The notes under the pieces were generated by a model, which was not told where the DNA came from, did not search any database, and saw only the letters and a list, made by a program, of their open reading frames with translations. The position numbers were made by a program, and so were the translations under genes. Positions 14,357 through 64,000 of a stretch of 64,000 nt of DNA are shown here, one piece after another (position 1 is the first letter of the stretch; each line of letters begins with the position of its first letter). The stretch lies in the IMG/VR virus record IMGVR_UViG_3300050581_000202. The stretch is one strand, 5' to 3'. The stretch comes from a virus (taxonomy: Duplodnaviria; Heunggongvirae; Uroviricota; Caudoviricetes).

Positions 14357-15181
14357 TCACTCCGCTGGGAGATCGGGAAGTCTCGCGCTTTCTGGAGTCG
14401 CCGCCTCAATTTCTTTCAGCAATGTCTCGTCAGAGACCTGACCGGCGCACCACGCGGCCACACGGGGCGGCAGGCCGCTGATGCCAACGGCCAACATCCG
14501 TTCGATCATGCGGTTGATTTCTTCGCGCGGCCGGACACTGCGGCGGCGTTTATACGTTCTGGCAAGACCCGGCAGGAACTTCCCCTTGCCGCGCTGCCGC
14601 GCCTCGGCGATCTTGTCGGCAGCGGCGATCTGCTCGTCGGCCGACTCGATTCCTGCCAGCGTGTCCAGGTTCCACTGCGAAAGCAGACCAGCAGCGGCCT
14701 TCTGTTGAATGGCCTCGGGCATCCGCAACAGCCGCACGCGGACCCAGACCCATCGCGTGTCCCGCTTTAGCTCGCGGGCCGCCTCCCGCACGCTCGCCCC
14801 GTGGGGATAGAGGTTCTGGATCGCACGGGCCTCTTCCAGGATGTTCAGGCTCTTGCGTTGCAGGTTCTCGACCAGATTCAGCATCCGGGCTTCATGGTCG
14901 CTCAAGCCCTCGCAGACGTAGGAGGGAATCTCCGTCCATTTCAGGAACTCGGTCACGGCCCGGAAGCGGCGGTGCCCGACGATCAGGCGGTACTGGCAGC
15001 CGGGTTCCTCCGTCCAAGGCTGGATGGCGACCGGGCAGATCAGCCGCCCTGCCTGGGCGATGCTCTCGGCCAGTTCTCTGACGGATTGCAGTGTGAACTC
15101 GCCACGACAGTTGAAGGTGGCGTCACAGTAAATGGTCGCCGCCGGGACGGGATATGCCTGGTACTGTTCCAGCGGTTTCAT
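14357..15181 (-). CDS. ParB/sulfiredoxin-like nuclease domain protein
   Basis: Start MKPLEQYQAY (ATG 15179-15181, ATGA overlap with the upstream gene). Contains the ParB N-domain motif RLIVGHRRFRAV. Confidence 0.6.
   Translation of the reverse strand: MKPLEQYQAYPVPAATIYCDATFNCRGEFTLQSVRELAESIAQAGRLICPVAIQPWTEEPGCQYRLIVGHRRFRAVTEFLKWTEIPSYVCEGLSDHEARMLNLVENLQRKSLNILEEARAIQNLYPHGASVREAARELKRDTRWVWVRVRLLRMPEAIQQKAAAGLLSQWNLDTLAGIESADEQIAAADKIAEARQRGKGKFLPGLARTYKRRRSVRPREEINRMIERMLAVGISGLPPRVAAWCAGQVSDETLLKEIEAATPESARLPDLPAE
14358..14399 (-). repeat. conserved ~42-bp element, copy 3
   Basis: CACTCCGCTGGGAGATCG-N13-TTTCTGGAGTC. Overlaps the ParB-like C-terminus and lies 9 nt upstream of the start at 14349. 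Confidence 0.8.
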
Positions 15182-15978
15182 CGCAAGGCACGGGAAAAAA
15201 GCGCAGGCCGGTTGCTGGGCAGCCATTCCCAGACGGCTGCGCTGCCGTCGTCGTTGATCCGCACGAAAGTATCGTTCGTCCTTGCCCAAGTCCCAGTGTT
15301 GAAGTGGTAGTCGCCGATCGAGCCCGGCTCGTGCGTGTGACCGTAGACCACCACGTCCGCCCCAGCCTCCTTGCGATACGCTTCTACGCCATCAAGCATT
15401 TCATCCATGCGGCCGTGCTGAAGGGTCAACTTCCGCCAGAGGGTCAAGGCCCCTTCCAACGTGCCGACGAACTGATCTTCCACGGCACGATGATTCGTCG
15501 AAAACGGCCCCCGATTGCGGTCTTCCAACAGGCCGGAAATGATCGCGGTGATCTCGCCGGTGCCGGGGTTGGCGTCGCGGCAATACGGGTCGGACTCGTG
15601 CCCGTGGAGGAAGGCAAACCGCCGACCGCCGATGGTCGCCTCGAAGGCCCTGGACATGGCGGGCAACGTAAGCCCCTGCAATTTGATCTGGGTGCCGATG
15701 AAGTCGATCAAGGCGTTGTCGTGGTTGCCGACTACCCACAAGGCCCCGAGCGGACCCATGTGTGCCATACGTGCCAGCAGGTCTTGATAGGCGCGAATCG
15801 ACCGGCTCAGGTTGACTTGCCACCAATCGAACAGATCGCCCAGGATATAGAGGAGGCCGCCTTCGGTCTCCACGTAATCCAGGAACTTGTGGAAGCGGAC
15901 CTCGCGGCCCTCCGCCGCGAAGTTATCGCGGTAGCCCCGGTCGCACAGATGCAAGTCGCTCACGCAGAAGATGGACAT
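15178..15978 (-). CDS. calcineurin-like metallophosphoesterase
   Basis: CVSDLHL, ILGDLFDWW, GNHD, LHGHE and GHTHEP motifs. Confidence 0.7.
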   Translation of the reverse strand: MSIFCVSDLHLCDRGYRDNFAAEGREVRFHKFLDYVETEGGLLYILGDLFDWWQVNLSRSIRAYQDLLARMAHMGPLGALWVVGNHDNALIDFIGTQIKLQGLTLPAMSRAFEATIGGRRFAFLHGHESDPYCRDANPGTGEITAIISGLLEDRNRGPFSTNHRAVEDQFVGTLEGALTLWRKLTLQHGRMDEMLDGVEAYRKEAGADVVVYGHTHEPGSIGDYHFNTGTWARTNDTFVRINDDGSAAVWEWLPSNRPALFSRALR

Positions 15979-16212: not shown

Positions 16213-16295
16213 TTATGTGGCGCAGCCAGTTATGTGGCGTCCAACACGAATCGTCCGGGATTCCAGGGGTCGTTGCTGTGCTGGACGCCACATAA
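16213..16295. repeat. direct plus inverted repeats (TTATGTGGCG x2; TTATGTGGCGTCC / GGACGCCACATAA) next to the integrase remnant
   Basis: TTATGTGGCG occurs at 16213-16222 and 16230-16239. A 13-bp perfect inverted copy GGACGCCACATAA lies at 16283-16295. Confidence 0.6.
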
Positions 16296-16303
16296 TGTCG
16301 GTT

Positions 16304-16524
16304 CTACAGGCTTCGCAGAAACTCCATGATTCCTCGATTCTTGCGCCAAGGCTTCTTCGGCTTGCCGCCCTTGATTTCGCACTTCACAAGTGCCTTGGCC
16401 TTCATTTTCAGATCGACTTCTGCATACACGTTGGTCGTGCTGAGGCATACATGACCCAGCCACGCTCGAATCGTGTTGATGTCCACGCTGGCTCGAAGCA
16501 GGTGGGTCGCCGCGCCTCGCAGGT
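16304..16524 (-). pseudogene. tyrosine recombinase (phage integrase) C-terminal remnant
   Basis: The frame translates ...THLLRASVDINTIRAWLGHVCLSTTNVYAEVDLKMKAKALVKCEI..., which is the canonical integrase C-terminus containing the catalytic Tyr (NVYAEV). An in-frame stop lies immediately upstream at 16525-16527. Only ~70 aa of the ~350 expected are present. Confidence 0.65.
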
Positions 16525-16698
16525 CTACAAGTCGGCAGGCTTCCCAGTGCGGCGCGCAATGGCGAGCGCCTGCTTGATGGCCTTCTTCTTGGCGGCCTCA
16601 CGGCTCGCTGCATCGCCAGCCGTGTAGATGTACTTGGCACCCGTAGTGCCATACTGAATCGCCGGCTTCCCGTTCTTCGTTGCGCGATGGATCGGCAT
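16525..16698 (-). CDS. small conserved hypothetical protein (57 aa)
   Basis: Not in the ORF track. MPIHRATKNGKPAIQYGTTGAKYIYTAGDAASREAAKKKAIKQALAIARRTGKPADL*; ATG at 16696-16698. Confidence 0.35.
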   Translation of the reverse strand: MPIHRATKNGKPAIQYGTTGAKYIYTAGDAASREAAKKKAIKQALAIARRTGKPADL

Positions 16699-16711
16699 GA
16701 TCTACTCCGGG

Positions 16712-18028
16712 TCAGGTCTTCAGCGGCCCCACGTCGCGGCCACCGTCGATCAGGTAGCGCCTGGGGCCGTTCTTCTCGTTCTCGTGGCGCAGCTTGCAAT
16801 TCATCCGCCAGGTGATGCCGTGCTTCGGATTGACGCCGTGAAGCCACTGGGACGGCTCGCGGTAGCCGGACAAGGAGTTGTAGGCGAAGGCGTCGGTGCC
16901 CACCCACGACCCGTTGACCAGCAGTTCGCCGTCCACGTCGGACAGGACGCTGGCGGCATGATGATGGCCGACGCAGAAATAGCGGCAGCGCTGGGCACCG
17001 GCCGCCGCACCCAGGGCGATCAGGCCCTTCTGCCGGCGGACCATGCCGTACCACGGGATGCCCAGGTTGGAGCGAACGTCGTCGCCGTGGGCGATGTTGA
17101 AGCCGACGCCGTTGATGTTGACGTTGGCGCTCCACGCATCGGGAATCGTGAAGTGGACGTTCTCCACGCCACGACAATGCAGACGCGCGACCTCACCGAC
17201 CAGATAATCCCAGTTGTCGTGCGCGCCGAGGTAGTCCTTCTTGGGTGTCCGCCGGCCGTGGTTGCCGGCCAGGTACAAGACATGGACCTCCTCGAAGTGG
17301 GCGGCCAGGTCGCGGTACATCAGGGCGTGCAACTGGCCGATGGCGAGGCAGTTCTTGAACTGGTTGCGGTAGTAGCTGCGCTCGCACGCCTTGTGGATTT
17401 CGCCGCTGGTGAAGTCGCCGTAGGCCAAGACCCACAGCACCGGGAAGTAGAACTTGGGTGCGAGGGTGTCCTGGGTCCATTCCACGACCGTGTTGACGTA
17501 CCGCTCGGCGCGACAACACGAGACGGGGAAGTTGTAGTCTTCCAGCCCGCCTACCTGATCGGGAACCACGACCTGATCGTGGTGGCCGTCCGACAGGTGC
17601 ATGACGCAGTGCTCGACGATCTGCGCCTTGCGTCGGTACTCGAAGGCCGTCGGCAGCGGCTCAAACGGCTTGATGCGTTGTTCCATTTCCGCAACGACGG
17701 CCTTGAACAAGCCGGCGATCTTCGCCCCGGCCTTGACCTTCTGCCGTTCGCGGTTTCGTTCATCGGTCAAATGGACGATCTCGGCCTCCAACTCCAAGAC
17801 CCGTTTGTCGGTCGGGTCGTAGTCCGGGAGAGTCTTGTGCTGGCCGCCGGCCCGCTTGGGCGTCGGCGGTTCCCCGCTCGGCCACTGCACGTCTTTGTGG
17901 ACCCGGCCCGTGGCGATGTCGGACACGATGGAGCGACTGACCTTGAATTGCCTGGCAATATCCGGCTGCGTGACGCCATCCGTGATGGCCTGCTTGATCT
18001 TCTCAACCTTCTTCTTGGTCAGCTTCAT
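16712..18028 (-). CDS. HTH domain fused to a PPP-type Ser/Thr-phosphatase-like metallophosphoesterase
   Basis: The N-terminal HTH is KIKQAITDGVTQPDIARQFKVSRSIVSDIATGRV. Phosphoesterase motifs follow: LSDGHHDQ, AYGDFTSGEIH, YLAGNHG, IAHGDD and VGHHH. Confidence 0.6.
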   Translation of the reverse strand: MKLTKKKVEKIKQAITDGVTQPDIARQFKVSRSIVSDIATGRVHKDVQWPSGEPPTPKRAGGQHKTLPDYDPTDKRVLELEAEIVHLTDERNRERQKVKAGAKIAGLFKAVVAEMEQRIKPFEPLPTAFEYRRKAQIVEHCVMHLSDGHHDQVVVPDQVGGLEDYNFPVSCCRAERYVNTVVEWTQDTLAPKFYFPVLWVLAYGDFTSGEIHKACERSYYRNQFKNCLAIGQLHALMYRDLAAHFEEVHVLYLAGNHGRRTPKKDYLGAHDNWDYLVGEVARLHCRGVENVHFTIPDAWSANVNINGVGFNIAHGDDVRSNLGIPWYGMVRRQKGLIALGAAAGAQRCRYFCVGHHHAASVLSDVDGELLVNGSWVGTDAFAYNSLSGYREPSQWLHGVNPKHGITWRMNCKLRHENEKNGPRRYLIDGGRDVGPLKT

Positions 18029-19855: not shown

Positions 19856-21888
19856 GATGCGACCTCCTCCACCGACATCTCGCCTTCTTCACCGGCATCC
19901 TTCCAATCGACGCCTTGGAGGAATTCACCCATCGTCATTAGCTCCAACTTCCGGTTGGCGCGGATCACGTCGAGCACGCGGCTGTCACTCGGCAGATGGA
20001 TCAGGTCCACGATGGTGCATCCCAGGTTCTCGTCCATGCCCTTGCGGTGGATGCGGTCTTCGCTTTGCACCCGGTATTCCGGCTTCCAACTGTTGGACCA
20101 GTACACCGCCATGCGGGCCTCCACCAACGTCAGGCTCATGCCGCCTGACTCCGGGTTGGCCACAAAAGCAACCTTGCCGTGGCCTTCCAAGTTGGCCCAG
20201 TAGTCCAGTGGCTCTTCTTCCGTTGCCAACGCGCCGTCCGGGCCGTCGCTCTTGGCGCGAAACACCTGGAAGTTCCCCTGGTCGCAGCGCACCACGTCCC
20301 ACTTTTCCTTGAGGCACAGCCTGACGATGCGATCCACCGAGCCGGTGAAGCCGGCGAAGATCACCAACCGCCCGACTTCCTCGTTCTCGTCCAACAGCAT
20401 CTTCAGGGCGGCGTCCTTCGGACACGGGACTTCCCGCGCAACACGGACCATCCGCGGTACTTCCCGCTTGCCGCCGCATGCCGGGCAAGGAACGGTCTGC
20501 TTGACCAACCGGGCCTTCAACTCGGGGTCCAGCAAGTCGATGGCCTGGTAAGTGGCCTCGGGATCGTCCGGGTCCACCCATTCGGCGACGGTGCCGTCCG
20601 CGCAATGCGTGCATTTCGTCACGCCGTCTTGCTGTTCGCGGTACTGGAAGCCGTCGCTCAGTTCCCGCAGCAGGGTCATGCCCGTCACGGCGTTGGGTGC
20701 CGCGCCGAAAAGGGCCTCGGCCACGCGCAACGTGCTGGCGGACGGCTTGCAAACGACCTTCCGGTATCGTTTTTCCGGCAGTTGCAGGCAGTCCTTCTTG
20801 TGCTTGATGACGACCAGCCCTTTGAGCCGGTCGTAGAGGTAGGCAACCTCGTTGGTGCTGGCGACGAACTTGTGGTAGCTGTCCGGGTCCGTTACGCCGT
20901 CCAATTCGTGCGGTCCCTCCTCGAACGTCTCTCCACACTGGGCGCATTTCCTCTGGTCGTCCTTCCAGCCGATGCGCTTCTTGAACTTGCCGGCATCGAA
21001 CTGCTGCTCAACCATGAAGGCCAAGCGTTCTTCCATCGCGCGGCGGCTGCCCTCTTTCAGGAAGCCCGGCCAGGCAATCTCGCACTGGCTCCACCAGTCG
21101 CACGGCGTCTTCGGCGACGGCGTGCCCGACATCTCGATCACGTAGCCCTCGTGGCCAAACGTCGTGCGGATCAGGTCCGCGAGCTTCTGGCAGGCTTTGG
21201 AGCGCTGCGAGGTGTCGTTCTTGCACCGGCTCGATTCATCCGCCACGAAGAACCGCGGCAAGGTCTGCGAGCCGTCCCACTCGTCCATAACGCGGACCAG
21301 ACCTTCATAGGTGAAGAACTCCACCTGGATGCGGTCGAAGGGAAAACCCCACAGCTTGAACTCACGCTTGATGTTCGGAATGCTGGTCTTCGGCCCCGCC
21401 CACCACACCAGATCGACGCCCGACTTCTCAATCACCATCTGGGCGGCCAGGGTCTTGCCCGTGCCCATCTCGGCACCGAATATCTGGTAGTGATACGTCA
21501 GGCCGGCGTCGGCCATGTCTGCCTGATGCGGCATGAAGTTCTGCGGCACGCCGCCGCGCATCAGCGGGCGGTACTCGTGACGCACAAGCGGGCGGTCGAA
21601 CCAGGCGTAGACATCCTCGCCGCAGAGATAGCCGATTTGGAAACGATTGCGCTGGCAGTCGTCCACGGACCACACTTTGATCTTGGCGTACTCGCCCTCG
21701 TCGTCGTAGCCGTGGAAGTGCGCGCCGCGCATGGCCTTGACTTCCGCCATCAGCCCGTAGCGAGTCTTCGTGCCGACCTTGCCGTCCCAGAAATAGATGC
21801 GGCCATCCTTTCTTTCCAACAGCACGGGCACACGAATCCTCGTGCCGCTGGATGTCTGGGCTTCAACCTTCACGGACTCAAGCGACAT
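19852..21888 (-). CDS. SNF2-family DEAD/DEAH-box helicase with zinc-ribbon insertions
   Basis: GAEMGTGKT (Walker A), FFVADESSRC (DExx) and a C-terminal helicase domain (LTLVEARMAVYWSNSWKPEYRVQSEDRIHRKGM). Inserted Cys pairs: CAQCG, CTHCADG and CPACGG. Confidence 0.85.
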   Translation of the reverse strand: MSLESVKVEAQTSSGTRIRVPVLLERKDGRIYFWDGKVGTKTRYGLMAEVKAMRGAHFHGYDDEGEYAKIKVWSVDDCQRNRFQIGYLCGEDVYAWFDRPLVRHEYRPLMRGGVPQNFMPHQADMADAGLTYHYQIFGAEMGTGKTLAAQMVIEKSGVDLVWWAGPKTSIPNIKREFKLWGFPFDRIQVEFFTYEGLVRVMDEWDGSQTLPRFFVADESSRCKNDTSQRSKACQKLADLIRTTFGHEGYVIEMSGTPSPKTPCDWWSQCEIAWPGFLKEGSRRAMEERLAFMVEQQFDAGKFKKRIGWKDDQRKCAQCGETFEEGPHELDGVTDPDSYHKFVASTNEVAYLYDRLKGLVVIKHKKDCLQLPEKRYRKVVCKPSASTLRVAEALFGAAPNAVTGMTLLRELSDGFQYREQQDGVTKCTHCADGTVAEWVDPDDPEATYQAIDLLDPELKARLVKQTVPCPACGGKREVPRMVRVAREVPCPKDAALKMLLDENEEVGRLVIFAGFTGSVDRIVRLCLKEKWDVVRCDQGNFQVFRAKSDGPDGALATEEEPLDYWANLEGHGKVAFVANPESGGMSLTLVEARMAVYWSNSWKPEYRVQSEDRIHRKGMDENLGCTIVDLIHLPSDSRVLDVIRANRKLELMTMGEFLQGVDWKDAGEEGEMSVEEVAS

Positions 21889-23101
21889 GCAATCTCCCTC
21901 GGGCGATCTCGCAATTGTGTTCGGTCAACTCGACGCCGATGCAGCGGCGGCCCAGGCGCTTGGCGGCCAAAAGCGTGGTGCCGCTGCCAGCGAAGGGGTC
22001 CAGAATCACGCCGCCATCCGGGGTCGAGAGCAGGGTCAGCAGGTACTCCATGAGGCCCAGTGGCTTAACGGTCGGATGGTCGTTGCCCGGCCCGCGCTCC
22101 GTGCGCGTCGCTTTGGCACAGTAGAAAAACCGGCTCGCTCCGCCCGAGTCGCCATAGCTCACCTGCACGTCGCCCGCCCTGCCGATGCCACCGTGATAGC
22201 CGTCGCCCGACTTGGTGCGGACGCAGTTGGTGCCACTGGTTAGCGTGCCGGTCTGTGCATCGAGTTGGACTGCCACCTCGTCGTCAAGCAACAGATTCGC
22301 CGGCCAACGTCCGCACTCCGATCCGCCTACAGGTGAGCGATTCGTGCTGGCCCAGCCGGCATCCGTTAGGCTGTCGCCGCGCTTGCGCACCGTGCTTTCG
22401 GTGCCGATCCGGCAAGCGTCGATGTTCATGCCGGCCACACCCCAGGTCAGGGCATTGTGGGCAATCGTGCCATCCAGCGGTTTCATCGCCAGGACGATTG
22501 GCTCCCAGGCCGGCTTGAGGGCCATTGCCCAGCCGGTCCACCGCGCGGCCTCGGGAGTGGCGGGAGCCGTTATCTGCGCGGCGCGAAGCCGAGCGTCGGT
22601 GCCAGGGGCATGAAGGCCGTTGCCACCGCCGTAGCATCCGTTCCCCTTGCCCTCGTGCAGGTGGTAGCCGGGACGGTCGAGCTTGTCGCCAATGACCTGT
22701 CGCTCCGCACCTTTCGATTTGTCAATCAGTTTGCCGATGTCGCCACACTTGGGCATCCCCTGGCCGTAAAGCCACATCAGCGCATCCCGAATCTCCCAGC
22801 CGGCATCCTCGATGGCGCAGCACAGCCGGTGATAGGTCCGCGTGCCGCCGAACGCCAGCAAGAGAGCACCGGGCTTGGACACGCGGGCGATGGCCCGCCA
22901 ATACTCGGGGCCAGGAACCTCGTGGTCCCAGTCCTTCTCCATGAAGCTGAGCCCGTAGGGCGGGTCCGTCGCCACGAAGTCTACCGATGCCTCGGGCAGC
23001 GTAGGCAGCACGTCGAGGCAGTTGCCGCAGTACAGGCTCAGGTTGTTCTGCTCGAAGAAGGGCTGCATGATAGGCGCTGACTCGAAAGCAATGACAGTCA
23101 C
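21878..23101 (-). CDS. DNA methyltransferase (N6A/N4C, DPPY + FxGxG)
   Basis: FVATDPPYG (motif IV) and DPFAGSGTT (motif I). The ORF start is GTG at 23099-23101, inside conserved element copy 4. An alternative ATG (MQPFFEQNN) is at 23066-23068. Confidence 0.85.
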   Translation of the reverse strand: MTVIAFESAPIMQPFFEQNNLSLYCGNCLDVLPTLPEASVDFVATDPPYGLSFMEKDWDHEVPGPEYWRAIARVSKPGALLLAFGGTRTYHRLCCAIEDAGWEIRDALMWLYGQGMPKCGDIGKLIDKSKGAERQVIGDKLDRPGYHLHEGKGNGCYGGGNGLHAPGTDARLRAAQITAPATPEAARWTGWAMALKPAWEPIVLAMKPLDGTIAHNALTWGVAGMNIDACRIGTESTVRKRGDSLTDAGWASTNRSPVGGSECGRWPANLLLDDEVAVQLDAQTGTLTSGTNCVRTKSGDGYHGGIGRAGDVQVSYGDSGGASRFFYCAKATRTERGPGNDHPTVKPLGLMEYLLTLLSTPDGGVILDPFAGSGTTLLAAKRLGRRCIGVELTEHNCEIARGRLHVA

Positions 23102-23839: not shown

Positions 23840-24652
23840 CTACCGGGCACGGGCCGGCTTGCTGTCCTGGACCTTCTCGACGCCGTTGTCCTTGACAGTA
23901 AGGAACTTGACAATCTCCCGGCGGATCACATCGTCGGCGGGCAGCCGGGTGAATGGCGTGGAGCACATCACCACCACGGGAACGTGCCAGGTGCCTTTGC
24001 GGTTCTCGGCCACCTTGACCTTCAAGGTGACGGGGATCGGGCCGTGCGGCTTCAGATCGCCGACCGCGTTGCCGGCCACCGCCTTGGCGTCGATGTCCGT
24101 CTGGGTGAGCGGAAGGAAAGGAAAGAGTTTCTTCGCCTCGATGCGGCTCGACTTGTTGCCGCAGAAGAACTCCAGGAACCGGCCGGTGCTCCGCTCGTAG
24201 ACGAGAAAGCTGGGACCGTACTGGCAGTGCGAATCGGCTTCGGTGGACTTGGCGGCGATCCGCTTGAACTCCTCGGATTCCATGTCGTAGGAGATGACCA
24301 GGGCCTCCATGTCGGTCATGTCGATGGCCTTCGGCCGGCGGGCCAGCGGGAGCAGGTCCGCGGACGGCCCCAGGTCGATGATCTCTTCATCGGACTCCGG
24401 GATGCCATAGTGGCCCTGCGGAATGAGGCCCTTCATGTTGGCCTTCGACTTCGTGTAGAGTTGCATCCGGCCGATGTAGTCGCCGCCCTTGGCGAGTTCC
24501 GCGAACTGGTCGTCGGTGCCGATCTGGGTGGAGGGAAGCTGGTCGAGATTGATGGGAACCAAAGCGGTGTCGGACATGGTTGTTCTTTCAGGGTTCAGGG
24601 TTCGGGATTCAGAGTTCAGGCGTCGAGAAGGTAGGTCACTCGTTGTCGTCAC
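23840..24652 (-). CDS. hypothetical protein
   Basis: 270 aa. A GGAGGG RBS precedes the ATG at 24650-24652; an alternative ATG is at 24575-24577 (MSDTALVPINLD). Function unknown. Confidence 0.4.
   Translation of the reverse strand: MTTTSDLPSRRLNSESRTLNPERTTMSDTALVPINLDQLPSTQIGTDDQFAELAKGGDYIGRMQLYTKSKANMKGLIPQGHYGIPESDEEIIDLGPSADLLPLARRPKAIDMTDMEALVISYDMESEEFKRIAAKSTEADSHCQYGPSFLVYERSTGRFLEFFCGNKSSRIEAKKLFPFLPLTQTDIDAKAVAGNAVGDLKPHGPIPVTLKVKVAENRKGTWHVPVVVMCSTPFTRLPADDVIRREIVKFLTVKDNGVEKVQDSKPARAR
24578..24626. repeat. short direct repeats (GTTCAGGG-like, 4 copies) immediately downstream of the ParB-like gene
   Basis: GGGTTCAGGGTTCGGGATTCAGAGTTCAGG. Confidence 0.4.
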
Positions 24653-25565
24653 ATGGCTCTACCCTCCGTCTCAAGAGATTCGCGCGACTTCGCGCCAGGA
24701 TTCTCTCTCGCTGCTGGCGGATGCTTTCCTCATCCAGGTTCAGCGCCCACTCCAGCGCCAGATACCAGCCGTCCACCGGCGTCTTGCAGCCAGCCTTCGT
24801 GAGTGCCAAACCGCCAAGCTGATGCTCGCGGTACTCGGCCAGCACTTCCTTCAAGGGCCGCAAGTGAGGCACCGGCTCGAAGTCCTTGCACAGGTCGTGC
24901 AGTTTTCCTTGACGGGCGGCCTCTTGAATCTGCTTGAGCAGGCAAGCCGCCACGGGGACGAACTCCCGTGCGGGGGCCGTCTTCGCCAATTCCATCAACT
25001 GCGTCTGATGGATGCGCGGCAGCTTGGCGAGCGTGTAGGCCGACTTCAGCGGTATCTCGCCACGTTCCACGGCCCTTTGGATGTCCGGCCGCAGACTTAG
25101 CAGCCTCAGTTGGTCGCCGATCCAGGCGGTCCCTTTGTGGATCAGATTGCTCACGTCGGCCAGCGTTGCGTCCATGCCCTGCCGGGTCGTGAGGGCGTCC
25201 ATGATCCGTTTGACCTGCCGCGCGTACTCCACGGCCGTCGTCTCGGGCCGCAAGGCATTGGCCTGAATCTGAAGCGCCAGCACGTCGTCGTCCGTGAGGT
25301 TGTGCTTCACGATGCAGGGCAGCGACGGCAGCCGTAATTCCGCGGCGGCCGTGTACCGATAGAGGCCGTCCACGACTTCGTAGCAGTCGGGCCGCTGCAC
25401 GGAAGGCCGCACGCAGATGGAATTCAGCGGGCCGACCGCCGCCAACGAATCACGTAGTTCCAGGTACTCAATCGACTCCCGGTTCACGATCCGCAGAACG
25501 ACCCACGGCTCGATGATCTGGTCCAGGGAAATCAGCCGGAACTCGTCGGGCAGTTGCTCGGGCAT
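24636..25565 (-). CDS. ParB-like nuclease domain protein
   Basis: ISLDQIIEP...LRIVNRESIEYLELRDSLAAVGPLNSICVRP...YEVVDGLYRYTAAAEL (ParB N-domain). Likely ATG at 25563-25565 (MPEQLPDEF). The ORF-track GTG start at 25592 lies inside an inverted repeat. Confidence 0.65.
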   Translation of the reverse strand: MPEQLPDEFRLISLDQIIEPWVVLRIVNRESIEYLELRDSLAAVGPLNSICVRPSVQRPDCYEVVDGLYRYTAAAELRLPSLPCIVKHNLTDDDVLALQIQANALRPETTAVEYARQVKRIMDALTTRQGMDATLADVSNLIHKGTAWIGDQLRLLSLRPDIQRAVERGEIPLKSAYTLAKLPRIHQTQLMELAKTAPAREFVPVAACLLKQIQEAARQGKLHDLCKDFEPVPHLRPLKEVLAEYREHQLGGLALTKAGCKTPVDGWYLALEWALNLDEESIRQQRERILARSRANLLRRRVEPCDDNE

Positions 25566-25587
25566 CGGTGCATCCGCGTCATACGTT

Positions 25588-25672
25588 GACACCTATACAA
25601 GACTGCCAAAGTCCCGTTTTTTCCCAACATTTCTGGGAAACTGCGAGCTTTTGGCAGTCTTGTATAGGTGTC
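25588..25672. promoter_or_regulatory. 24-bp near-perfect inverted repeat with a nested palindrome, in the divergent ParB-like / primase-helicase intergenic region
   Basis: GACACCTATACAAGACTGCCAAAG (25588-25611) and CTTTTGGCAGTCTTGTATAGGTGTC (25648-25672) are reverse complements with a single T indel. The 36-nt spacer contains TTCCCAACATTTCTGGGAA (TTCCCA-N7-TGGGAA). Confidence 0.7.
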
Positions 25673-25758
25673 TACGCGGCCCGCTCTTCGAGGCCGGATG
25701 CCATGCGCGTTTATACGCCCACTACGGATCGACCGACGCGGCCATTCAGAGAGATGTC

Positions 25759-28425
25759 ATGCCCTTAGTCAGCCAATCGCTCCAAAGTTTCCTCCAAGCC
25801 CGCAAGACGCTGGCCAATGCCGATCTGGTGGATCGCTGGTCCACGGCGATGGAAACGCAAGTGAACGTGATGGCCGGCGACGGCGAGCCGGTGGCCGGGA
25901 AGAAGTCCACCTGGACGAATGGCAGCGACACTTGGCACTCCATTCGCATCCCGAAGAACGCCGCCACGGACCCGACGTGGGAAGACTACAGGATCGGCTA
26001 TCCCTTCGACCTGTATGCCGAAGGGATCGGGATGACAGGCTGGGATTGGCAAGCCCGCTGCTCCCGGCACTTCGGCTATGACTTCGATGCCCTGACCGGA
26101 CACGCCCAAGGCATTGGCATCGACGATGCCCAATTAGAGAAAGTCAAACAGGCCGCTTGCGCCCTGCCCTACGTCGAAGTCCGCCGCAGCACGGGCGGCG
26201 GCGGCATCCACCTCTATGTCTATCTTGACGATGCTGGCGTGCCGACCGCCAACCACACCGAGCACGCCGCCCTGGCTCGCTGCATCCTGGGGATGATGTC
26301 GGCCGAGGTGGGCTTCGACTTCGCCAGCGCGATCGACGCCTGTGGCCACGTCATGTGGATTTGGCACCGCAAGATGTCGGCCGAGAACCACGGGCTGGAG
26401 ATTATCAAGCCGGCTGAGAAGCGACTGTGCCTCAACGACTTGCCGGCCAACTGGCGGGACCATATTGAAGTCGTCAAGGGACGCCGCACAAAGGTCCGCA
26501 TCAACGAGGTCGCCGAAGACGACACCGACCCTTTCGAGGCCCTGGCCTCCAGCCGGAAGATCATTCCCCTGGACGACAGCCACAAGGCGCAGATCGAGGC
26601 CCTGATGCGCTCTGGGGCCACCACGCTCTGGGTGGCCGACCACCATCTCCTGCAAACGCATACCACAGCGCTCCGCGAACTCTTGAACGGCCCGGAGGGC
26701 AAAGCCTTGAAGCTCGTGGGCGTCTTCAAGACGAACTCGGAGGGCCGCGACCCCGGCACGCCCAACTGTTTCTTGTTTCCGCTGCCCAACGGCGCTTGGA
26801 GGGTCTATCGCTTCTCGCCCGGCATCGCCGAGGCCGACACCTGGACCCAAGACGGTCAAGGTTGGACCACTTGCCACTTCAACCGCTACCCGGACCTGAA
26901 GACCGCGTGTACGTTGCTCGGCGGTGTGGAGCGCGAGCAAGGCGGCTTTGTCTTTGCCTCGGCGGAGGCCGCCGTCCAGGCCGCGAAAAGCCTGGGCGAA
27001 GACCTCAAATTGGACCCGAGCGTCATGGACCGCAAGGTGACGCTCAAGGCGCACAAGGACGGCCGGCTGGTCGTGGAGATCGAGCGGAAGAAGAAAGACG
27101 AAGAGCCGTTGAAAGGCTGGGAGGAGAAGAAAGGGAAGTACGTCAAGATTTTCCAGATCAAGACGGCCCCCAAGGAAGACAGCGACCTGGATTCTAACGA
27201 ATTCGACGGAATCATCCGCGCGCTGGAGACCGCCGCCGTCGAGCACGCCGGCTGGGTCGTGAAGAAGCAGAAGGAATGGGTCCGGCAGCCGGCCGCCAAC
27301 GTGAAGATGATCCTGCAAAACCTGGGGCAGCCCAAGGCCGACGCCGAGGCCATCATGGGCGGGGCCGTGGCCCGTGGCTGGCGCTTGGTCAACCTCCCCT
27401 TCCGCGAAGAATACCCCGGCGGCCGGCAATGGAACATGGACGCCGCCCAGTTCAAGTACAAGCCCGCCGAGTTGGCCGACGACGAGATTCCCCACCATCC
27501 GCATTGGGACTTGATCTTCGAGCACATCGGCCACGAACTGACGCCGATGCTGCGGGAACTGCCCTGGGCCATCAACGCCAACATCCGTAGCGGGGCCGAT
27601 TATCTCCGTGCCTGGATCGCCTGCGCCTTCCGCGATCCCTTTCAACCTACGCCGTACCTCTTCTTCTTTGGTCCTGAGAACAGCGGCAAGAGCATTTTCC
27701 ATGAAGCCCTGCAACTGTTGGTGACAAAAGGCGTGGTCCAGGCCAAACGGCCGCTTGAAGGGCGCGATGGTTTCAACGGCGAACTCTCCGGGGCAATCAT
27801 CTGTGCCGTGGAAGAGGTGGACATCTCCAAATGCCCTGGTGCCCGCGAACGACTCAAGGCATGGGTGACTGGCCGGACCATCTCCATCCGCAAGCTGCGC
27901 CAGGACAGTTTCGAGCAGCCCAACGCGACCCATTGGGTGCATACGGCCAACAGCCTGGAGAATTGTCCGATCTTCCCCGGCGACACCCGCATCACGGCCA
28001 TCTACGTCGCCGATCTGTTGGACGAACAACGCATCGCCAAGCCCAAGATGGAGGCGTTCCTTGAGCAGGAGGCCCCGCATTTCCTCCACACGCTGATGCA
28101 CCTGGAATTGCCACCGATGATCGACCGGCTCCGGCTGCCGGTGGTGACGACCGCCAGCAAGCTCTCCGCGGAAGAGGCAAACCAAACGGAACTGGAGCAC
28201 TTCGTCGCCGAGTGCTGCGAAACCACACCCGACAAGCATACGCCGTTCGCGGAATTCTACGACCGCTTCCAGCAATGGCTCCCGCCCAACGAAAAGCACG
28301 CCTGGTCCAAGAAGCGAGTCAGCAAGGAATTGCCCGTCCGCCACTCGACAACGGTTGGATACGCCAACCAGAAATTCGTTTCCCATGTGACCCTGAAGCC
28401 GGCCAAGGAAGGGGACCGCAAATGA
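25759..28425 (+). CDS. bifunctional primase-polymerase (AEP/Prim-Pol) fused to SF3 (D5/P4-alpha-like) helicase
   Basis: The likely start is the in-frame ATG at 25759 (MPLVSQSLQ); upstream ORF sequence overlaps the divergent ParB gene. The Prim-Pol motif is RRSTGGGGIHLYVYLDD. The Walker A is FFFGPENSGKS, with a Walker B / SF3 helicase region around AIICAVEEVD. Confidence 0.8.
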   Translation: MPLVSQSLQSFLQARKTLANADLVDRWSTAMETQVNVMAGDGEPVAGKKSTWTNGSDTWHSIRIPKNAATDPTWEDYRIGYPFDLYAEGIGMTGWDWQARCSRHFGYDFDALTGHAQGIGIDDAQLEKVKQAACALPYVEVRRSTGGGGIHLYVYLDDAGVPTANHTEHAALARCILGMMSAEVGFDFASAIDACGHVMWIWHRKMSAENHGLEIIKPAEKRLCLNDLPANWRDHIEVVKGRRTKVRINEVAEDDTDPFEALASSRKIIPLDDSHKAQIEALMRSGATTLWVADHHLLQTHTTALRELLNGPEGKALKLVGVFKTNSEGRDPGTPNCFLFPLPNGAWRVYRFSPGIAEADTWTQDGQGWTTCHFNRYPDLKTACTLLGGVEREQGGFVFASAEAAVQAAKSLGEDLKLDPSVMDRKVTLKAHKDGRLVVEIERKKKDEEPLKGWEEKKGKYVKIFQIKTAPKEDSDLDSNEFDGIIRALETAAVEHAGWVVKKQKEWVRQPAANVKMILQNLGQPKADAEAIMGGAVARGWRLVNLPFREEYPGGRQWNMDAAQFKYKPAELADDEIPHHPHWDLIFEHIGHELTPMLRELPWAINANIRSGADYLRAWIACAFRDPFQPTPYLFFFGPENSGKSIFHEALQLLVTKGVVQAKRPLEGRDGFNGELSGAIICAVEEVDISKCPGARERLKAWVTGRTISIRKLRQDSFEQPNATHWVHTANSLENCPIFPGDTRITAIYVADLLDEQRIAKPKMEAFLEQEAPHFLHTLMHLELPPMIDRLRLPVVTTASKLSAEEANQTELEHFVAECCETTPDKHTPFAEFYDRFQQWLPPNEKHAWSKKRVSKELPVRHSTTVGYANQKFVSHVTLKPAKEGDRK

Positions 28426-28604
28426 TCCTTCGCATTTACCGTTCCGCCGGCTTCCTTTCCCGCTCCGTGTTGCGGGCCGAGTTCGTCGCCGAAGTTGAAG
28501 TAGACGAGCGGCCGGAAGACGAAGCGGCCTTCGCCGACGAGTACGGCGGCGACATCGTTGACGTTGCACCCACTGATTCAGAGAGCCTCGGAGAAGATCC
28601 ATGA
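28422..28604 (+). CDS. small acidic protein (60 aa)
   Basis: MILRIYRSAGFLSRSVLRAEFVAEVEVDERPEDEAAFADEYGGDIVDVAPTDSESLGEDP. ATGA overlaps at both ends (primase stop and next gene start). Confidence 0.35.
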   Translation: MILRIYRSAGFLSRSVLRAEFVAEVEVDERPEDEAAFADEYGGDIVDVAPTDSESLGEDP

Positions 28605-29026
28605 GCAGGTACGGCATGACCGACAGCGGCAAACGGCAATCCTTCGGCAAGGGCATGGCGATCCGCGACACAGCAGATGACAAGCCCCGGCCGGACCTAA
28701 TCTCCCCTTTCGCCGAAGAGCGGCAAGGGCACTGGCTGCTCATGGGTGCCAAGAAGTACGCCGAGCGCAATTGGGAAAAGGGGATGCCCTTCAGCCGTTG
28801 CGTGGCCTCGCTCAAGCGGCACGTAATGAAGTACCAGCAGGGAAAACGGGACGAGGACCACCTGGCGGCGATCATGTTCAACGCAATGGCCTTGATCCAT
28901 TACGAGGAGATGATCGAGCGCGGCCTGTTGCCGGCGGAATTGAACGACATGCCCAACTACCAGTCGGCCGCCCGTGAGCCGTCGCGCAAGCCTGTCAGGA
29001 AGGGGAGGAAGACCCGCCGTGGCTGA
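28601..29026 (+). CDS. DUF5664-like phage protein (domain associated with the N-terminus of phage dATP/dGTP diphosphohydrolases)
   Basis: DSGKRQSFGKG...DLISP...GAKKYAERNWEKG...SLKRH...DEDHLAAIMFNAMALIHYEE matches the conserved pattern of that family as I recall it. I could not verify this by search. Confidence 0.45.
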   Translation: MSRYGMTDSGKRQSFGKGMAIRDTADDKPRPDLISPFAEERQGHWLLMGAKKYAERNWEKGMPFSRCVASLKRHVMKYQQGKRDEDHLAAIMFNAMALIHYEEMIERGLLPAELNDMPNYQSAAREPSRKPVRKGRKTRRG

Positions 29027-29639: not shown

Positions 29640-29650
29640 GGGGACGCCCA

Positions 29651-30142
29651 ATGTCAACATCTGAAAAGAACCAGTACCCGCCTTGTCCGAAGCGCCTTAC
29701 CGGCGCGGACATGCACGCGAAGTGCAACAATCCTACGAAGGGCCATTTTCAGCGACCGGTGCGAGAGACGGAATGCCGTCGCTGCCTCGGCCTTGACCCC
29801 ATGCCGACCGCTGCGGCGGCGGGTGAATCATCGCAGCCCGAGCCGCCACTTGCGCCGTTGTCTCAGCCTTTGCCACATTCTGAACCGCCCACGACGCCGG
29901 GATTAGTTCGTCGGGCCGTCTCCTACACCGAGGCCCTGGCCCGCTGGACGGCAGCCGGTCGGCCGGAGCGCTCCGACAAGGATGTCGAGCGGATATTCCA
30001 CGAGCACTGCAAGCCGTGCAAGTGGTATGACTCCGAGAAGCACATCTGCCGAGGCTGTGGCTGCCGGGTCGCCGACAGCGGTGTCGCCGTCCTGAACAAG
30101 ATCAGGATGGCCACGGAGCATTGCCCCCGAGACCTGTGGTGA
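29651..30142 (+). CDS. Cys-rich zinc-finger-like protein
   Basis: MSTSEKNQYPPCPKR...CNNPTKGH...CRRC...HCKPCKWYDSEKHICRGCGCRV...HCP. The earlier part of ORF 29303..30142 overlaps the exonuclease gene. Confidence 0.4.
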   Translation: MSTSEKNQYPPCPKRLTGADMHAKCNNPTKGHFQRPVRETECRRCLGLDPMPTAAAAGESSQPEPPLAPLSQPLPHSEPPTTPGLVRRAVSYTEALARWTAAGRPERSDKDVERIFHEHCKPCKWYDSEKHICRGCGCRVADSGVAVLNKIRMATEHCPRDLW

Positions 30143-30147
30143 AAGCC

Positions 30148-30537
30148 ATGCCGTGCGACTGCCCCGAAGACCTCCCCCGTCCCAAAGCAACGGGCGGCTG
30201 CAACTACCTGTGCTATTCCGGCGGTTCGGCTGCCGGCATCTACTCCCTCGTCGAAGAAGCACTCCCGGACGTGGAGATGGCCCACGGTCGTCCCGTCGTC
30301 CACTCCGACGGCTCTCTGGAGTTCCCCGGCCCTCCACCCGCGATCCTCGGCTACCGCCAGGAGGGCAATCGGCTCTATCCCGCCTGGCCGCCCTGTAAGC
30401 TGCGGATGCTGAGAATCGCAGTTGTTGACGGCGTGCTGACCATTGCCGGCATTTGCGGTGAGCAAGCGGCAGGGGCGTTCGGGCAGGAAGTCGCGCCGGG
30501 TCAATGTCACGCCTGTCCCACGCGCCGATTCTCCTGA
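30148..30537 (+). CDS. hypothetical Cys-containing protein
   Basis: Start MPCDCPEDLPRP right after the upstream stop. 129 aa. Confidence 0.3.
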   Translation: MPCDCPEDLPRPKATGGCNYLCYSGGSAAGIYSLVEEALPDVEMAHGRPVVHSDGSLEFPGPPPAILGYRQEGNRLYPAWPPCKLRMLRIAVVDGVLTIAGICGEQAAGAFGQEVAPGQCHACPTRRFS

Positions 30538-30643
30538 CTGGCGCGTCCAGATCGCGCAATTCTGTCCTACGTTCGGCATTCCGGGAAGTGCCGACTGTCG
30601 GGGTCGCAGAGGGCGTGCTATCCTTGCGGGGAGGATAGCGCTC

Positions 30644-31120
30644 ATGCCGACGAGGATAGGACGAAACAGCCCGTGCCCCTGCGGTAGCGGAAGGAAGTAT
30701 AAGAGTTGCTGCTACGGACGACAGTTCGACTGGGTTGAAGACGAGGACGGCCAGATTCTCCGCCGGGTGCCGGTCCCGGAAGAAATGGTCGATATGCTCA
30801 ACGGCCTCTTTGTTGCTTCCCACGGCCGGGAACCGGGACCAGGAGATCGCCTGTTCGACGGGGCACCGCCCTTGGAGTGGATCGAGCACCAGACCATCCA
30901 GGCGATGAAGAAGGCCAGGATCGACCCGGCCCTTATCCACGCCCACGAGCAGACGGGTCTGCTTCTCTCCACCGAGAACGAGTCGAAATGCACGACGATG
31001 GACGTGGCCGAATGGGACGCCGCCATCGACGCCTATGAACGAGAGACCGGCACGAAAGCCACGCGCCGCCGCTTGAGCGACGACGACCTCATGGCAGTGC
31101 TCGCCAACGGGCCGAAGTGA
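30644..31120 (+). CDS. SEC-C motif protein
   Basis: MPTRIGRNSPCPCGSGRKYKSCC, the SEC-C metal-binding motif, at the N-terminus. Confidence 0.5.
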   Translation: MPTRIGRNSPCPCGSGRKYKSCCYGRQFDWVEDEDGQILRRVPVPEEMVDMLNGLFVASHGREPGPGDRLFDGAPPLEWIEHQTIQAMKKARIDPALIHAHEQTGLLLSTENESKCTTMDVAEWDAAIDAYERETGTKATRRRLSDDDLMAVLANGPK

Positions 31121-31145
31121 CCGCGAGGCCGGAGGAAACGCGGCG

Positions 31146-31673
31146 ATGAGCGATGTCCGAAGCGACTGGCTGTACCACAATCCCGAACACTTCGTCCTAG
31201 CGAACGGGCGTCCCTTCACTCCGCAGCCGAGACCCAAAGGGATCAGGACGGGCAGTTTCAGGCAGTGCTTCGACAACGCCTTCCGCCTGGCGCGGCGGCG
31301 GAAGCTGATCTACGTCGAAGGGTATGCGATCCGAGGATGGGACGATTGGAAGTCCTTCCCGGTACTCCACGCCTGGTGCGCCACACGCGATGGCCTGGTC
31401 ATTGACAGCACTTGGAAGGACGGCTTGGAATACTTCGGCGTGCCCCTCGACATGGGCTACGTTGAGCGCAGCCGAAAAGCATCAGGTCAATTCAGCGTTT
31501 TGGAGAATTGGGAACAACTGTACCCCATCCTCCGGGACCACACGACCGACTGGCGGTATCGCGGCGAGATCGACCCGTCGGCGCATACTCCGAGCGAGGT
31601 CATTGATTGGCTGAAGGGGATCAAGGAGCACTTTGACAGCGAGGGCGAGGCCCAGCGGCCACAGGAGTCTTGA
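31146..31673 (+). CDS. hypothetical protein
   Basis: 175 aa with protein-like composition. It is the last plus-strand gene before the convergent junction. Confidence 0.4.
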   Translation: MSDVRSDWLYHNPEHFVLANGRPFTPQPRPKGIRTGSFRQCFDNAFRLARRRKLIYVEGYAIRGWDDWKSFPVLHAWCATRDGLVIDSTWKDGLEYFGVPLDMGYVERSRKASGQFSVLENWEQLYPILRDHTTDWRYRGEIDPSAHTPSEVIDWLKGIKEHFDSEGEAQRPQES

Positions 31674-31705
31674 CCGACATCGGTGAACCCTCGCCGATCC
31701 CACGG

Positions 31706-32281
31706 CTACTGATAGAACTGGTGCGTCGCCATCCCTTGGCGATCCGCCTGGGAAGTGAGCAGCTTGTAGACCTTGCAGTCGGAGAAGTCCACCAGCTTGC
31801 AGCGGGTGACGTGGACGCCGAACTGCCGCAACTCACGGCGGACTTCTTTGGTCAAGGTCTTGGTGAGCGATTCGTCTCGGATGCCCGCCATGATCTCGTC
31901 ATAGGTGTGCGTGGCAATCACGCGGACCACGGCGGATTGCGTCAGGTCGTTGATCGTGGTGTCCACGTCCCAGTTCAGCTTGCCGATGGCCCGCACGGGA
32001 TCGGGAATCCGATAGACCACGAGCGTCTTGACGACGACCTTCGTGCCATCCTTGGTGGCCATCACCTGATCGGGGATGGCGAGCGTCTGTCGGGCCGTCA
32101 CGATGACTTCCACGTCCGTCGTGAGCGGCCAATAGACGTGCAGCCCCGGCACGAGCAGCTTGACTCGTTTGCCGCGCACCCATCTCACGCCGCCGTGTGT
32201 GGCCCGCACAATGAGGATGCGGGGAAAGAATTGGTAGACCGCCTGGAACAACTGGTTCAGCCAAGCAAACGCGCTTTCCAT
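31706..32281 (-). CDS. SPFH/Band-7 (stomatin/prohibitin-like) domain protein
   Basis: FFPRILIVRATHGGVRWVRGKRVKLLVPGLHVYWPL...VEVIVTARQTLAIPDQVMATKDGTKVVVKTLVVYRIPDPVRA matches the SPFH consensus pattern. Confidence 0.55.
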   Translation of the reverse strand: MESAFAWLNQLFQAVYQFFPRILIVRATHGGVRWVRGKRVKLLVPGLHVYWPLTTDVEVIVTARQTLAIPDQVMATKDGTKVVVKTLVVYRIPDPVRAIGKLNWDVDTTINDLTQSAVVRVIATHTYDEIMAGIRDESLTKTLTKEVRRELRQFGVHVTRCKLVDFSDCKVYKLLTSQADRQGMATHQFYQ

Positions 32282-32451
32282 AAGATGCTCCTCTCAAGAA
32301 ACGACAAGTGCCCCGGCGATAGTCACCTGGGCACCTTGTCCAACCGCACTTGCCGCTTGCACCGTAATCTACTTGCCGCGACTTGACCCTGGCGCGTCTT
32401 CGCCGCCCATATCTCGCTTTTCATCGTTCGGACAGGCCGCGGACGGCTGCC

Positions 32452-63905: not shown

Positions 63906-64000
63906 GATCCCGACGTGGCTGATTCCCCAAAACGGAATCCCGTAGGTGGCGACGTTGATGCCGGCGCTGATCCAGCTTCGTCCGCTGAACCCGATGATGT

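Follow-up and report, generated by a model that had tools for sequence, protein, structure and literature searches.

Phage-specific promoters and operators that are reused at operon starts are represented by several described systems. The promoters of T7, T3, SP6 and K11 have a contiguous core of ~23 bp with an A/T-rich 5′ part, a central stretch that is phage-specific yet identical among the copies within a genome, and a TATA sequence before a G-rich start, with the first 6 transcribed bases conserved; ten or more copies are present per genome. Promoters of the alternative or ECF sigma type, such as those of SPO1 gp28 and gp33/34 and of phiEco32 gp36, are bipartite, and in phages they form a set specific to phage operons. 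Lambda OR and RK2 korA/trfA with KorB OB are short intergenic regions that serve two divergent operons through dyads of 13–17 bp; in RK2, a ParB-family gene adjoins and the same type of site is reused at other operons. The stoperators of mycobacteriophage L5, about 30 sites of 13 bp inside operons, are asymmetric, orientation-dependent, repeated and aligned with transcription. In P4 ori/crr, the site lies near a primase-helicase gene, a second related element is found kilobases away, and multiple 8-bp iterons are bound by the alpha C-terminal domain. To our knowledge, neither the promoters nor the regulatory logic of planctomycete phages has been characterised by experiment, and we know of no characterised phages of the phylum Planctomycetota; a search of the literature on planctomycete promoters and phages found nothing relevant.

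Here we describe an inverted repeat between two divergent genes of such a phage, located in a window of 64,000 nucleotides (the whole stretch of DNA that was analysed). The original prediction had correctly given the coordinates and sequences of the intergenic gap, the arms, their 36-nt spacing and the nested palindrome, and had offered three readings: a replication origin, which it preferred, a binding site of the adjacent ParB-like protein, and a shared operator for both divergent promoters. Our analysis favours the last of these in a modified form and weakens the other two. The repeat is not a single symmetric site; it consists of a back-to-back pair of independent, oriented units, each directed toward its own operon. 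It is probably a compact divergent promoter/operator region made of two directional units of ~40 bp, of which a further copy heads the structural operon.

Genome context and the inverted repeat

The window belongs to a tailed dsDNA phage with a GC content of 62%. Coding-strand analysis divides it into three long co-oriented blocks (Table 1), which start at the three units described below. Third-position GC supports the reading frames of both genes flanking the repeat. The ParB-like protein, whose gene heads a leftward operon of replication and DNA-metabolism genes, matches Spo0J (PDB 1vz0, E = 1e-12), and the primase-helicase matches a primase (PDB 6k9e, E = 5e-12). The C-terminal part of the latter is a helicase of the D5/DUF5906 type, and AEP-like DxD and sGxGxH motifs were recognised by eye in its N-terminal part; residues D108/D110/H115 and S144/T145/G147/G149/H151 are invariant in the primase alignment A2. 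Other phage genes encode PolA, an ATP-dependent ligase, a gpA-type large terminase, a P22-like coat protein and a tape-measure protein, together with a helicase, methyltransferases, a DnaQ-like exonuclease and a dATP/dGTP diphosphohydrolase-like protein. The reference collection includes no isolated phage that is similar by DNA or by primase. A scan of bacterial genomes with the primase alignment located relatives almost only in Planctomycetota MAGs (Thermoguttaceae, Pirellulales and Planctomycetaceae), many of them inside Mb-size contigs, and the phage is therefore assigned to a temperate phage/prophage family of planctomycetes.

Table 1. Features of the repeat, its leaders and the flanking genes (positions in the window)
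Feature	Position	Strand	Sequence or basis
Intergenic gap, 193 bp, between ParB-like ATG (25565, −) and primase ATG (25759, +)	25566–25758
Imperfect 93-bp palindrome, two back-to-back putative control units	25584–25676		Arms, fold z-scores, conservation in relatives
Left arm	25588–25611		GACACCTATACAAGACTGCCAAAG
Right arm	25648–25672		CTTTTGGCAGTCTTGTATAGGTGTC
Nested dyad between the arms	25621–25626, 25634–25639		TTCCCA-N7-TGGGAA
Left unit, faces ParB-like operon	25584–25626	−	Profile match, E = 1.2e-10
Left unit blocks (as reverse complements)	25620–25626; 25588–25610	−	TGGGAAA; core (block analysis)
Right unit, faces primase operon	25634–25676	+	Profile match, E = 2.5e-10
Right unit blocks	25634–25640; 25641–25649; 25650–25672	+	TGGGAAA; free linker; core TTTGGCAGTCTTGTATAGGTGTC (block analysis)
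ParB-like gene leader, short, conserved	25566–25592	−	..TGACGCGGATGCACCG then ATG; conserved across relatives
Primase leader	25667–25758	+	Two conserved stem-loops then CGACGCGGCC; per-sequence folds
Primase-leader stem-loops	about 25667–25702 and 25704–25721	+
ParB/Spo0J/Noc-family protein, N-terminal ParB domain and HTH	24636–25565	−	PF02195, PF17762, PHROG ParB-like families
Second ParB-like gene	14357–15289
Primase-helicase, first gene of rightward operon	25759–28425	+	PF19263, PHROG DNA primase families
Block 1	25565 down past position 1	−	Coding-strand analysis
Block 2	25759 to about 31673	+	Coding-strand analysis
Block 3	beyond 64000 down to 31706	−	Coding-strand analysis

That the inverted repeat is not attributable to chance is confirmed. 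The 23-nt cores of its arms (25588–25610 and 25650–25672) are perfectly complementary, and no match to this 23-mer occurred in any of 100 shuffled windows. The predicted RNA folds have energies of −61.6 and −67.4 kcal/mol (z about −12), and the DNA fold an energy of −34.8 kcal/mol (z −9.8). A repeat search lengthens the dyad to arms of 43 nt with 84% complementarity around a centre of 7 nt. Local GC falls to 45–50% over the palindrome, compared to 62% genome-wide, as a dip without a distinct AT-rich tract.

The arrangement was followed through ~30 loci of related phages and prophages; scanning IMG/VR by primase provided 77 loci with identities from 99% to 39%. The palindrome, which the original prediction expected to recur in related phages, is kept in its architecture down to ~57% primase identity, and almost all relatives in this range have an inverted repeat with arms of 18–30 nt and a spacer of 29–45 nt. 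The repeat ends 55–100 nt before the primase start, or 200–220 nt before it where an extra small ORF is present, and the prophage relatives in MAGs have the same arrangement. The arm sequences differ among phages, with both arms changing together; the window, for example, has ACCTATACAAGACTGCCAAA, whereas L007 has ACCTACACATAACTCCCAAA and L008 has ACCTATACATGGCCCCCAAA. The inner dyad also varies (TTTCCCA/TGGGAAA, TTTTCAG/CTGAAAA or TTTCCAA/TTGGAAA).

The two-block unit and its third copy

Each arm is an oriented unit of two blocks: TGRAAA, a free linker of 8–9 nt, TTTGG, 7 hypervariable nucleotides and TGTRTAGGTGTC. Read toward the gene, the layout common to all units is (C/T)TG(G/A)(G)AAA, 8–9 variable nucleotides, (T)TTTGG, 7 hypervariable nucleotides and (G/T)T(A/G)TAGG(T/G)GTC. 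The upstream block is TGGGAAA in the window and CTGAAAA or TTGGAAA in relatives, and the contiguous core consists of TTTGG, ~7 genome-specific bases and TGTATAGGTGTC. Block-wise comparison of left and right units in 19 genomes separates the recognition blocks from the linker. The identity between left and right is 0.92 within a genome versus 0.69 between genomes for the upstream block, 0.88 versus 0.79 for the TTTTGG block, 1.00 versus 0.61 for the hypervariable block and 0.97 versus 0.86 for the TGTATAGG block, compared to 0.35 versus 0.39 for the 8-nt linker, which is no more alike between the arms than random sequence (35%). Since the recognition blocks are identical while the linker drifts, selection appears to act on two recognition blocks and not on base pairing. 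Gene conversion between the arms is unlikely, because it would homogenise the linker as well.

No additional copy of the arm is present inside the 64-kb window, either with up to 3 mismatches or by profile search. An exact arm search located a lone third copy at 12461–12495 of L004, a contig that is 90% identical to the window and extends past its right end. This copy lies ~1.4 kb past position 64000 and ~40 kb from the palindrome; its location is thus outside the window, and it is known from relatives of 90% or lower identity. Toward the adjacent gene it reads ctgggaaaaaacggtgaTTTGGCAGTCTTGTATAGGGTgaggag, and a 183-aa zinc-finger-like protein, the first gene of the ~34-kb minus-strand structural block (terminase, portal, coat, tail), starts 7–10 nt later. 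The copy is placed directly 5′ of the Shine-Dalgarno sequence GAGGAG and the start codon, in the orientation of the structural operon. The unit lacks symmetry, and its inner half-site is unpartnered in the third copy. Two assemblies end exactly at the third copy, as expected for a repeat.

In all genomes for which both regions were fetched, the lone copy bears that genome's own variant of the core and upstream block. The common cores are ..GTCTTTTATAGG with CTGAAAA (L010/L088), TTTGGGAGTCT.. (L035/L085), TTTGGGAGTCATGTGTA.. (L038/L083), TTTTGGCAGTCTAGTGTAGGTGT with TGGGGAA (L016/L188) and TTTTGGGGGCCATGTATAGG (L008/L183). Third copy and arms are identical at 159 of 162 positions in 6 genomes, a value reached only by the true assignment among 720 permutations (1/720). 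A profile built from 42 units was used to search ~75 kb of the window's genome type (the window with its left extension in L090 and right extension in L004) and three other multi-locus genomes. It returned exactly three matches per genome, each pointing into one long operon, and the next best match had E > 3. An exact search with an 18-mer in the clade of 63% identity gave just the two arms and no third copy; a degenerate family-wide motif scan of IMG/VR gave mostly chance single matches among the matches listed.

The positions of the units relative to the genes suggest where transcripts may begin. As GAGGAG and a start codon follow immediately after the third copy, its transcript would have to begin at or before TAGG to make use of this ribosome-binding site, and this geometry places putative starts at G 25667 (+) and G 25593 (−) in the window. 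With TATA-GG taken as the start, the upstream block would span roughly −40 to −33, and the hypervariable block roughly −12 to −6. The putative starts, at the G's after TATA, are 73–76 bp apart in 28 loci (median 74) and 74 bp apart in the window. The ParB-side leader is noncoding, since its in-frame GTG at 25592 meets stop codons in three relatives (L029, L052 and L067). On the primase side, per-sequence folds of 19 relatives show that the two stems are kept despite differing sequences, and RNAalifold, applied to these poorly aligned leaders, recovers just the invariant core of the second hairpin. The stem-loops begin directly after the right unit, as would suit a transcript with its start there.

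Origin, partition site or promoter

Three copies located at the 5′ ends of three long operons, all pointing inward, argue for a promoter/operator function. The shared operator is favoured because the two units of the repeat face their own operons and the unit recurs singly before the structural operon. Each unit would then be the promoter of one long operon, probably with an overlapping operator. The left unit would drive the genes for the ParB-like protein, methylase, helicase, PolA and ligase, the right unit those for primase, dNTP diphosphohydrolase and exonuclease, and the solitary third copy the terminase, head, tail and lysis genes, with transcription starting at the G's that follow TATA. 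One sequence-specific factor would read both blocks, its recognition code varying among related phages; it could be a phage sigma-like protein, an activator or repressor, a novel polymerase or a host factor. The whole lytic programme of a temperate planctomycete phage would thereby come under one switch. The promoter type was compared with known classes. No sigma-70 −35/−10 pair spaced by 16–18 nt is present on either strand of 25300–26000, a consensus that may not fit planctomycetes, and a sigma-54 promoter was rejected, no GG-N10-GC being seen by eye. An ECF-type arrangement, GGGAAA(C)-N15/16-GTC, fits in the window, but the position of AAC is not fixed, and the −10 position coincides with the hypervariable block (GTC, GTT, GCC, CTC).

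A replication origin would account for the site by having the primase-helicase or another initiator bind the arms while the centre of 45–50% GC melts, possibly with cruciform extrusion; the distant third copy would then be a cis enhancer, like P4 crr. In a mixed version, the units are promoters whose transcription activates the origin, as with T7 phi1.1A/B or lambda pR. The site adjoins the primase-helicase gene, its large dyad symmetry includes a very stable predicted cruciform arm, the GC dip is local and the 73–76 bp spacing is fixed, all of which agree with an origin, as does the presence of large inverted repeats of unrelated sequence in the same place in relatives with only 40–45% primase identity; none of the other intergenic gaps offers a better iteron-rich candidate. 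However, iterons are absent beyond the two arms: none flanks the repeat, where the original prediction had proposed to look for them, no tandem arrays are found near the site, and the other direct repeats in 25000–26300 are weak two-copy matches. Complementarity is not maintained in the linker within the arms, and the third copy, oriented with its operon, keeps a short and constant distance to a Shine-Dalgarno sequence and start codon. Unit type also tracks no part of the primase (best 30-aa window r = 0.28). In two relatives (L011 and L026), an extra ORF is inserted before the primase gene, and the unit stays with the 5′ end of the operon and not with the primase gene. We consequently regard an origin as unlikely.

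A site for the ParB-like protein, either centromere-like or a KorB/VirB-like loading site for a CTP-dependent clamp with a role in partition of the element or in silencing or activating the three operons, is, in our estimate, distinctly improbable. Such sites are short palindromes in the ParB family, whereas the unit is asymmetric and its third copy is a lone half; canonical parS is absent within 3 mismatches, no ParA-type partner was found among the scanned ORFs, and integrated prophage relatives need no partition system. Unit type does not correlate with variation of the ParB-like protein (no 30-aa window exceeds r = 0.14), and no HTH column separates GGCAG from GGGAG genomes, the sole separating column (259/310) being outside the HTH. 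These points stand against the facts that the first gene of the leftward operon encodes a true ParB/Spo0J/Noc-family protein, that a second ParB-like gene is present in the window, that N15 and RK2 likewise have few dispersed ParB-family sites per genome, and that ParB-family genes are frequently autoregulated from sites at their own promoters. A structure selected for pairing itself (an RNA hairpin, a terminator, a telomere-resolution-like palindrome or a miniature inverted-repeat transposon) would explain the extreme predicted stability and the arm changes on both sides between relatives. The linker columns are not complementary, however, and the two-sided changes are explained by the unpaired third copy, which changes in step; we consider this very improbable. 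Its individual forms were also rejected: the element lies at the 5′ ends of both genes with no T-run or terminator-like site; no Rfam family matches at gathering score, with sub-threshold miRNA-type hairpins only; a MITE is disfavoured by a position fixed across the family and the lack of target-site duplications; and, for telomere resolution, the centre is imperfect and no protelomerase was found among the scanned ORFs.

The hypothetical reading factor and comparison with described systems

A factor that would read the units was sought among the encoded proteins. Searches with Pfam and PHROG in ~55 ORFs of the window and flanks detected no RNA polymerase, sigma factor or classical repressor. 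Neither PF00940 nor a PHROG RNA polymerase was found in the large ORFs of the window or the scanned ORFs of the ~11 kb flanks, the flanks contain no ORF of the size of a T7-type RNA polymerase, and a β′-like DxDGD motif occurs in no real gene. Sigma70_r2/r4 domains and PHROG sigma families are absent from the scanned ORFs, which comprise all but a few small or structural ones.

Candidates were additionally assessed by co-variation in 16–18 genomes, comparing the Hamming distance between units with the p-distance between proteins, for whole proteins and 30-aa windows, over about 1–34.5 kb of the window and part of the left flank. Unit type is unrelated to backbone divergence (r = 0.01). For whole segments of the primase, r is 0.07–0.14 raw and at most 0.31 as a partial correlation. 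The 270-aa and 197-aa proteins, the methylase, the helicase, the diphosphohydrolase and the exonuclease were rejected as readers (r ≤ 0.3), as were all ORFs at 10–25 kb (r ≤ 0.30) and those at 28.4–34.5 kb, which are not common to the genomes or have whole-protein r ≤ 0.22 (best 30-aa window 0.46). Two ORFs left of 8 kb gave r = 0.50 and 0.45 in a small sample (n = 8); the former, left of the window, is a CxxxCxxC radical-SAM-like protein and was rejected. The 75-aa protein adjoining the third copy is nearly invariant across unit types, and the HTH_17 proteins at the far left end are highly variable, with types that do not partition the unit types. None of the neighbouring proteins varies in concert with the unit, which leaves the reading factor hypothetical. 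It is conceivable, if rather unlikely, that the three units make up all the promoters of a self-contained transcription system specified by the phage. Their T7-like single-block core, with its rapidly diversifying specificity stretch, and the upstream block would in that case be read by a phage-encoded specificity factor or polymerase without detectable similarity to known RNA polymerases and sigma factors. The gene for the factor would then sit among the unannotated ORFs or in a mosaic region, and the lack of correlation with the backbone would mean that the code changes independently of the rest of the genome.

At the level of sequence, and with the start placed as above, the unit resembles the promoters of the T7 group in each of the properties given for them: the contiguous core with an A/T-rich 5′ part, forming a block of ~20–23 bp from about −17 to +6, the central stretch that is phage-specific yet identical within a genome, TATA before a G-rich start, and the conserved first 6 transcribed bases. 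It differs from them in that no RNA polymerase gene was found in ~75 kb, three copies are present per genome, an additional upstream block is present at a distance of about 9 nt from the core, and the host phylum and virion type (with a tape-measure protein and P22-like coat here) are others. The bipartite form recalls sigma-type promoters, with a GGAAA-type block 15–16 nt from a GTC/GTT-type element and a putative start 7–9 nt further on, and the set is likewise specific to phage operons. In contrast to that type, no sigma gene was detected, the AAC of an ECF −35 element has no fixed position, and the TTTGG “spacer” and the start region are more conserved than the putative −10.

The placement in a short intergenic region between two divergent operons of a temperate element is similar to lambda OR and RK2, and to RK2 also in the adjoining ParB-family gene and the reuse of the site type at other operons. 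Here, however, the sites are asymmetric 40-bp units, and there is no repressor among the proteins found and no evident sigma-70 hexamers. The unit shares with the L5 stoperators its asymmetry, its dependence on orientation, its repetition and its alignment with transcription, and it differs in being present as three 40-bp units at operon starts only. P4 ori/crr is similar in the neighbourhood of a primase-helicase gene and in a related element kilobases away, but the present locus has no iterons and no co-variation with the primase, and its distant copy is placed as an operon promoter. With fewer than three repeated sites at the locus, just the two arms, it is also unlike iteron-type origins in general (P4 ori/crr, SaPI ori).

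Thus, the feature is ordinary in kind, a phage-specific promoter/operator reused at operon starts. It is noteworthy for a host phylum without characterised phages, for a bipartite specificity that diversifies fast, and for the lack of a recognisable reader among the proteins found. It also provides a caution, as arm changes of an inverted repeat that look compensatory can stem from shared recognition by a protein and not from pairing; the two are distinguished by the linker, which drifts freely, and by the third copy, which is unpaired. If the promoter/operator reading is true, the units give exact positions for mapping transcript starts, and the family would offer naturally diversified, presumably orthogonal promoter variants, whose reader could be traced by genome-wide co-variation. 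The three units would then define the entire lytic regulon in a widespread family of temperate Planctomycetota phages.

Leaders of the primase and ParB-like genes

The right unit, the arm of the 25584-25676 palindrome that faces the primase-helicase gene, is immediately followed on its 3' side by two stem-loops in the primase 5' leader. The CGTTTATACG core of the second stem-loop is almost invariant among relatives, and its outer stem pairs co-vary between related phage and prophage loci (for example, CAGTGCGT/ACGCACTG in L008 and CGGCGCG/CGCGCCG in L010). These stem-loops could act as a 5' stabiliser, as an antitermination-type element or as a translational operator.

A further motif, (T/C)GACGCGG(A/C), is found in the leaders of both the ParB-like and the primase genes, 13-22 nt 5' of the start codon. 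The motif is not enriched across the window overall, and its conservation is thus positional. The distant relatives L142, L144, L164 and L079 carry TTGACGCGGC centrally between the arms, instead of at the leader positions. In some relatives (L011, L012, L034 and L026), ~200-220 nt separate the right unit from the primase start, and this interval accommodates an additional small ORF; the unit remains upstream of this ORF. As read by eye from the sequences, the encoded product begins with MPETKPIL (MPKAKPIP in L026).

Features of the leader regions, the operons and the probable prophage boundary
Feature	Position	Strand	Remarks
First stem-loop, primase 5' leader	~25667-25702		within 25667-25758
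Second stem-loop, primase 5' leader	~25704-25721		within 25667-25758
(T/C)GACGCGG(A/C), ParB-like gene leader	25571-25581	minus
(T/C)GACGCGG(A/C), primase leader	25733-25743	plus
Inverted repeat, leftward operon	16230-16295
Second ParB-like gene	14357-15289	minus	PHROG ParB-like families, E about 1e-20
Nucleotide/DNA-modification candidates, jointly	28601-29026, 6791-7813, 4824-5630, 9254-9862, 806-1558, 5468-5992, 21878-23101
dATP/dGTP diphosphohydrolase N-domain protein			PF18909
Widespread unannotated protein			no Pfam match; CxxxCxxC motif similar to that of radical-SAM proteins; 642 homologues
DeoC-type aldolase			nucleotide/DNA-modification candidate
5'-3' deoxyribonucleotidase-like protein			nucleotide/DNA-modification candidate
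Three DNA methyltransferases			nucleotide/DNA-modification candidates
Tandem HTH_17 proteins	L090:16240-16590 and 16494-16919		~4.7-5.4 kb beyond the left end of the window

Gene content and the convergent junction

The second ParB-like gene shares one operon with the first. A non-coding gap of this leftward operon also holds a second strong inverted repeat, whose 18-nt arms (TTATGTGGCGTCCAACAC and GTGCTGGACGCCACATAA) are 94% complementary and spaced by 30 nt. Candidate nucleotide- and DNA-modification genes are clustered in the window and, taken together, hint that the phage DNA may be modified; no PurZ-type gene was found among the scanned ORFs.

The region in which the plus-strand block converges with the structural block (29640-32450) is mosaic: of 18 close relatives, only 2-5 also have the SEC-C-motif protein (30443-31120), the adjoining genes and the 175-aa protein (31146-31673). 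The 33-bp convergent junction (31673/31706) contains no terminator-like site, the sole match in the scanned interval being intragenic (31823-31841).

Possible genome ends, host and lifestyle

L179 and L184 are independent assemblies that both stop at the same point, 880 nt upstream of the 183-aa gene heading the structural operon. This point corresponds to ~66.3 kb in window coordinates and lies immediately beyond the 175-aa gene that flanks the third copy of the unit on its right. The shared position suggests a physical genome end (cos) of this phage, which has a gpA terminase. The far end of the leftward operon carries a tandem pair of small Xis/AlpA-like proteins of the HTH_17 type followed by a host-like gene with an ARPP-1 domain, and this boundary in L090 is probably the prophage end. 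Of all DNA-binding proteins seen, the HTH_17 proteins vary most, with close relatives sharing 31-72% identity; in some relatives a single one is present, not two. No integrase was identified.

Relatives of the primase occur almost only in Planctomycetota MAGs (L135-L178), many of them within contigs of 0.2-7.8 Mb, and the MAGs carrying them point to Planctomycetota as the putative host of the phage. A search for exact protein matches indicates that one window protein is also encoded on a 0.2-1 Mb contig, so an integrated prophage may be what the window itself represents.
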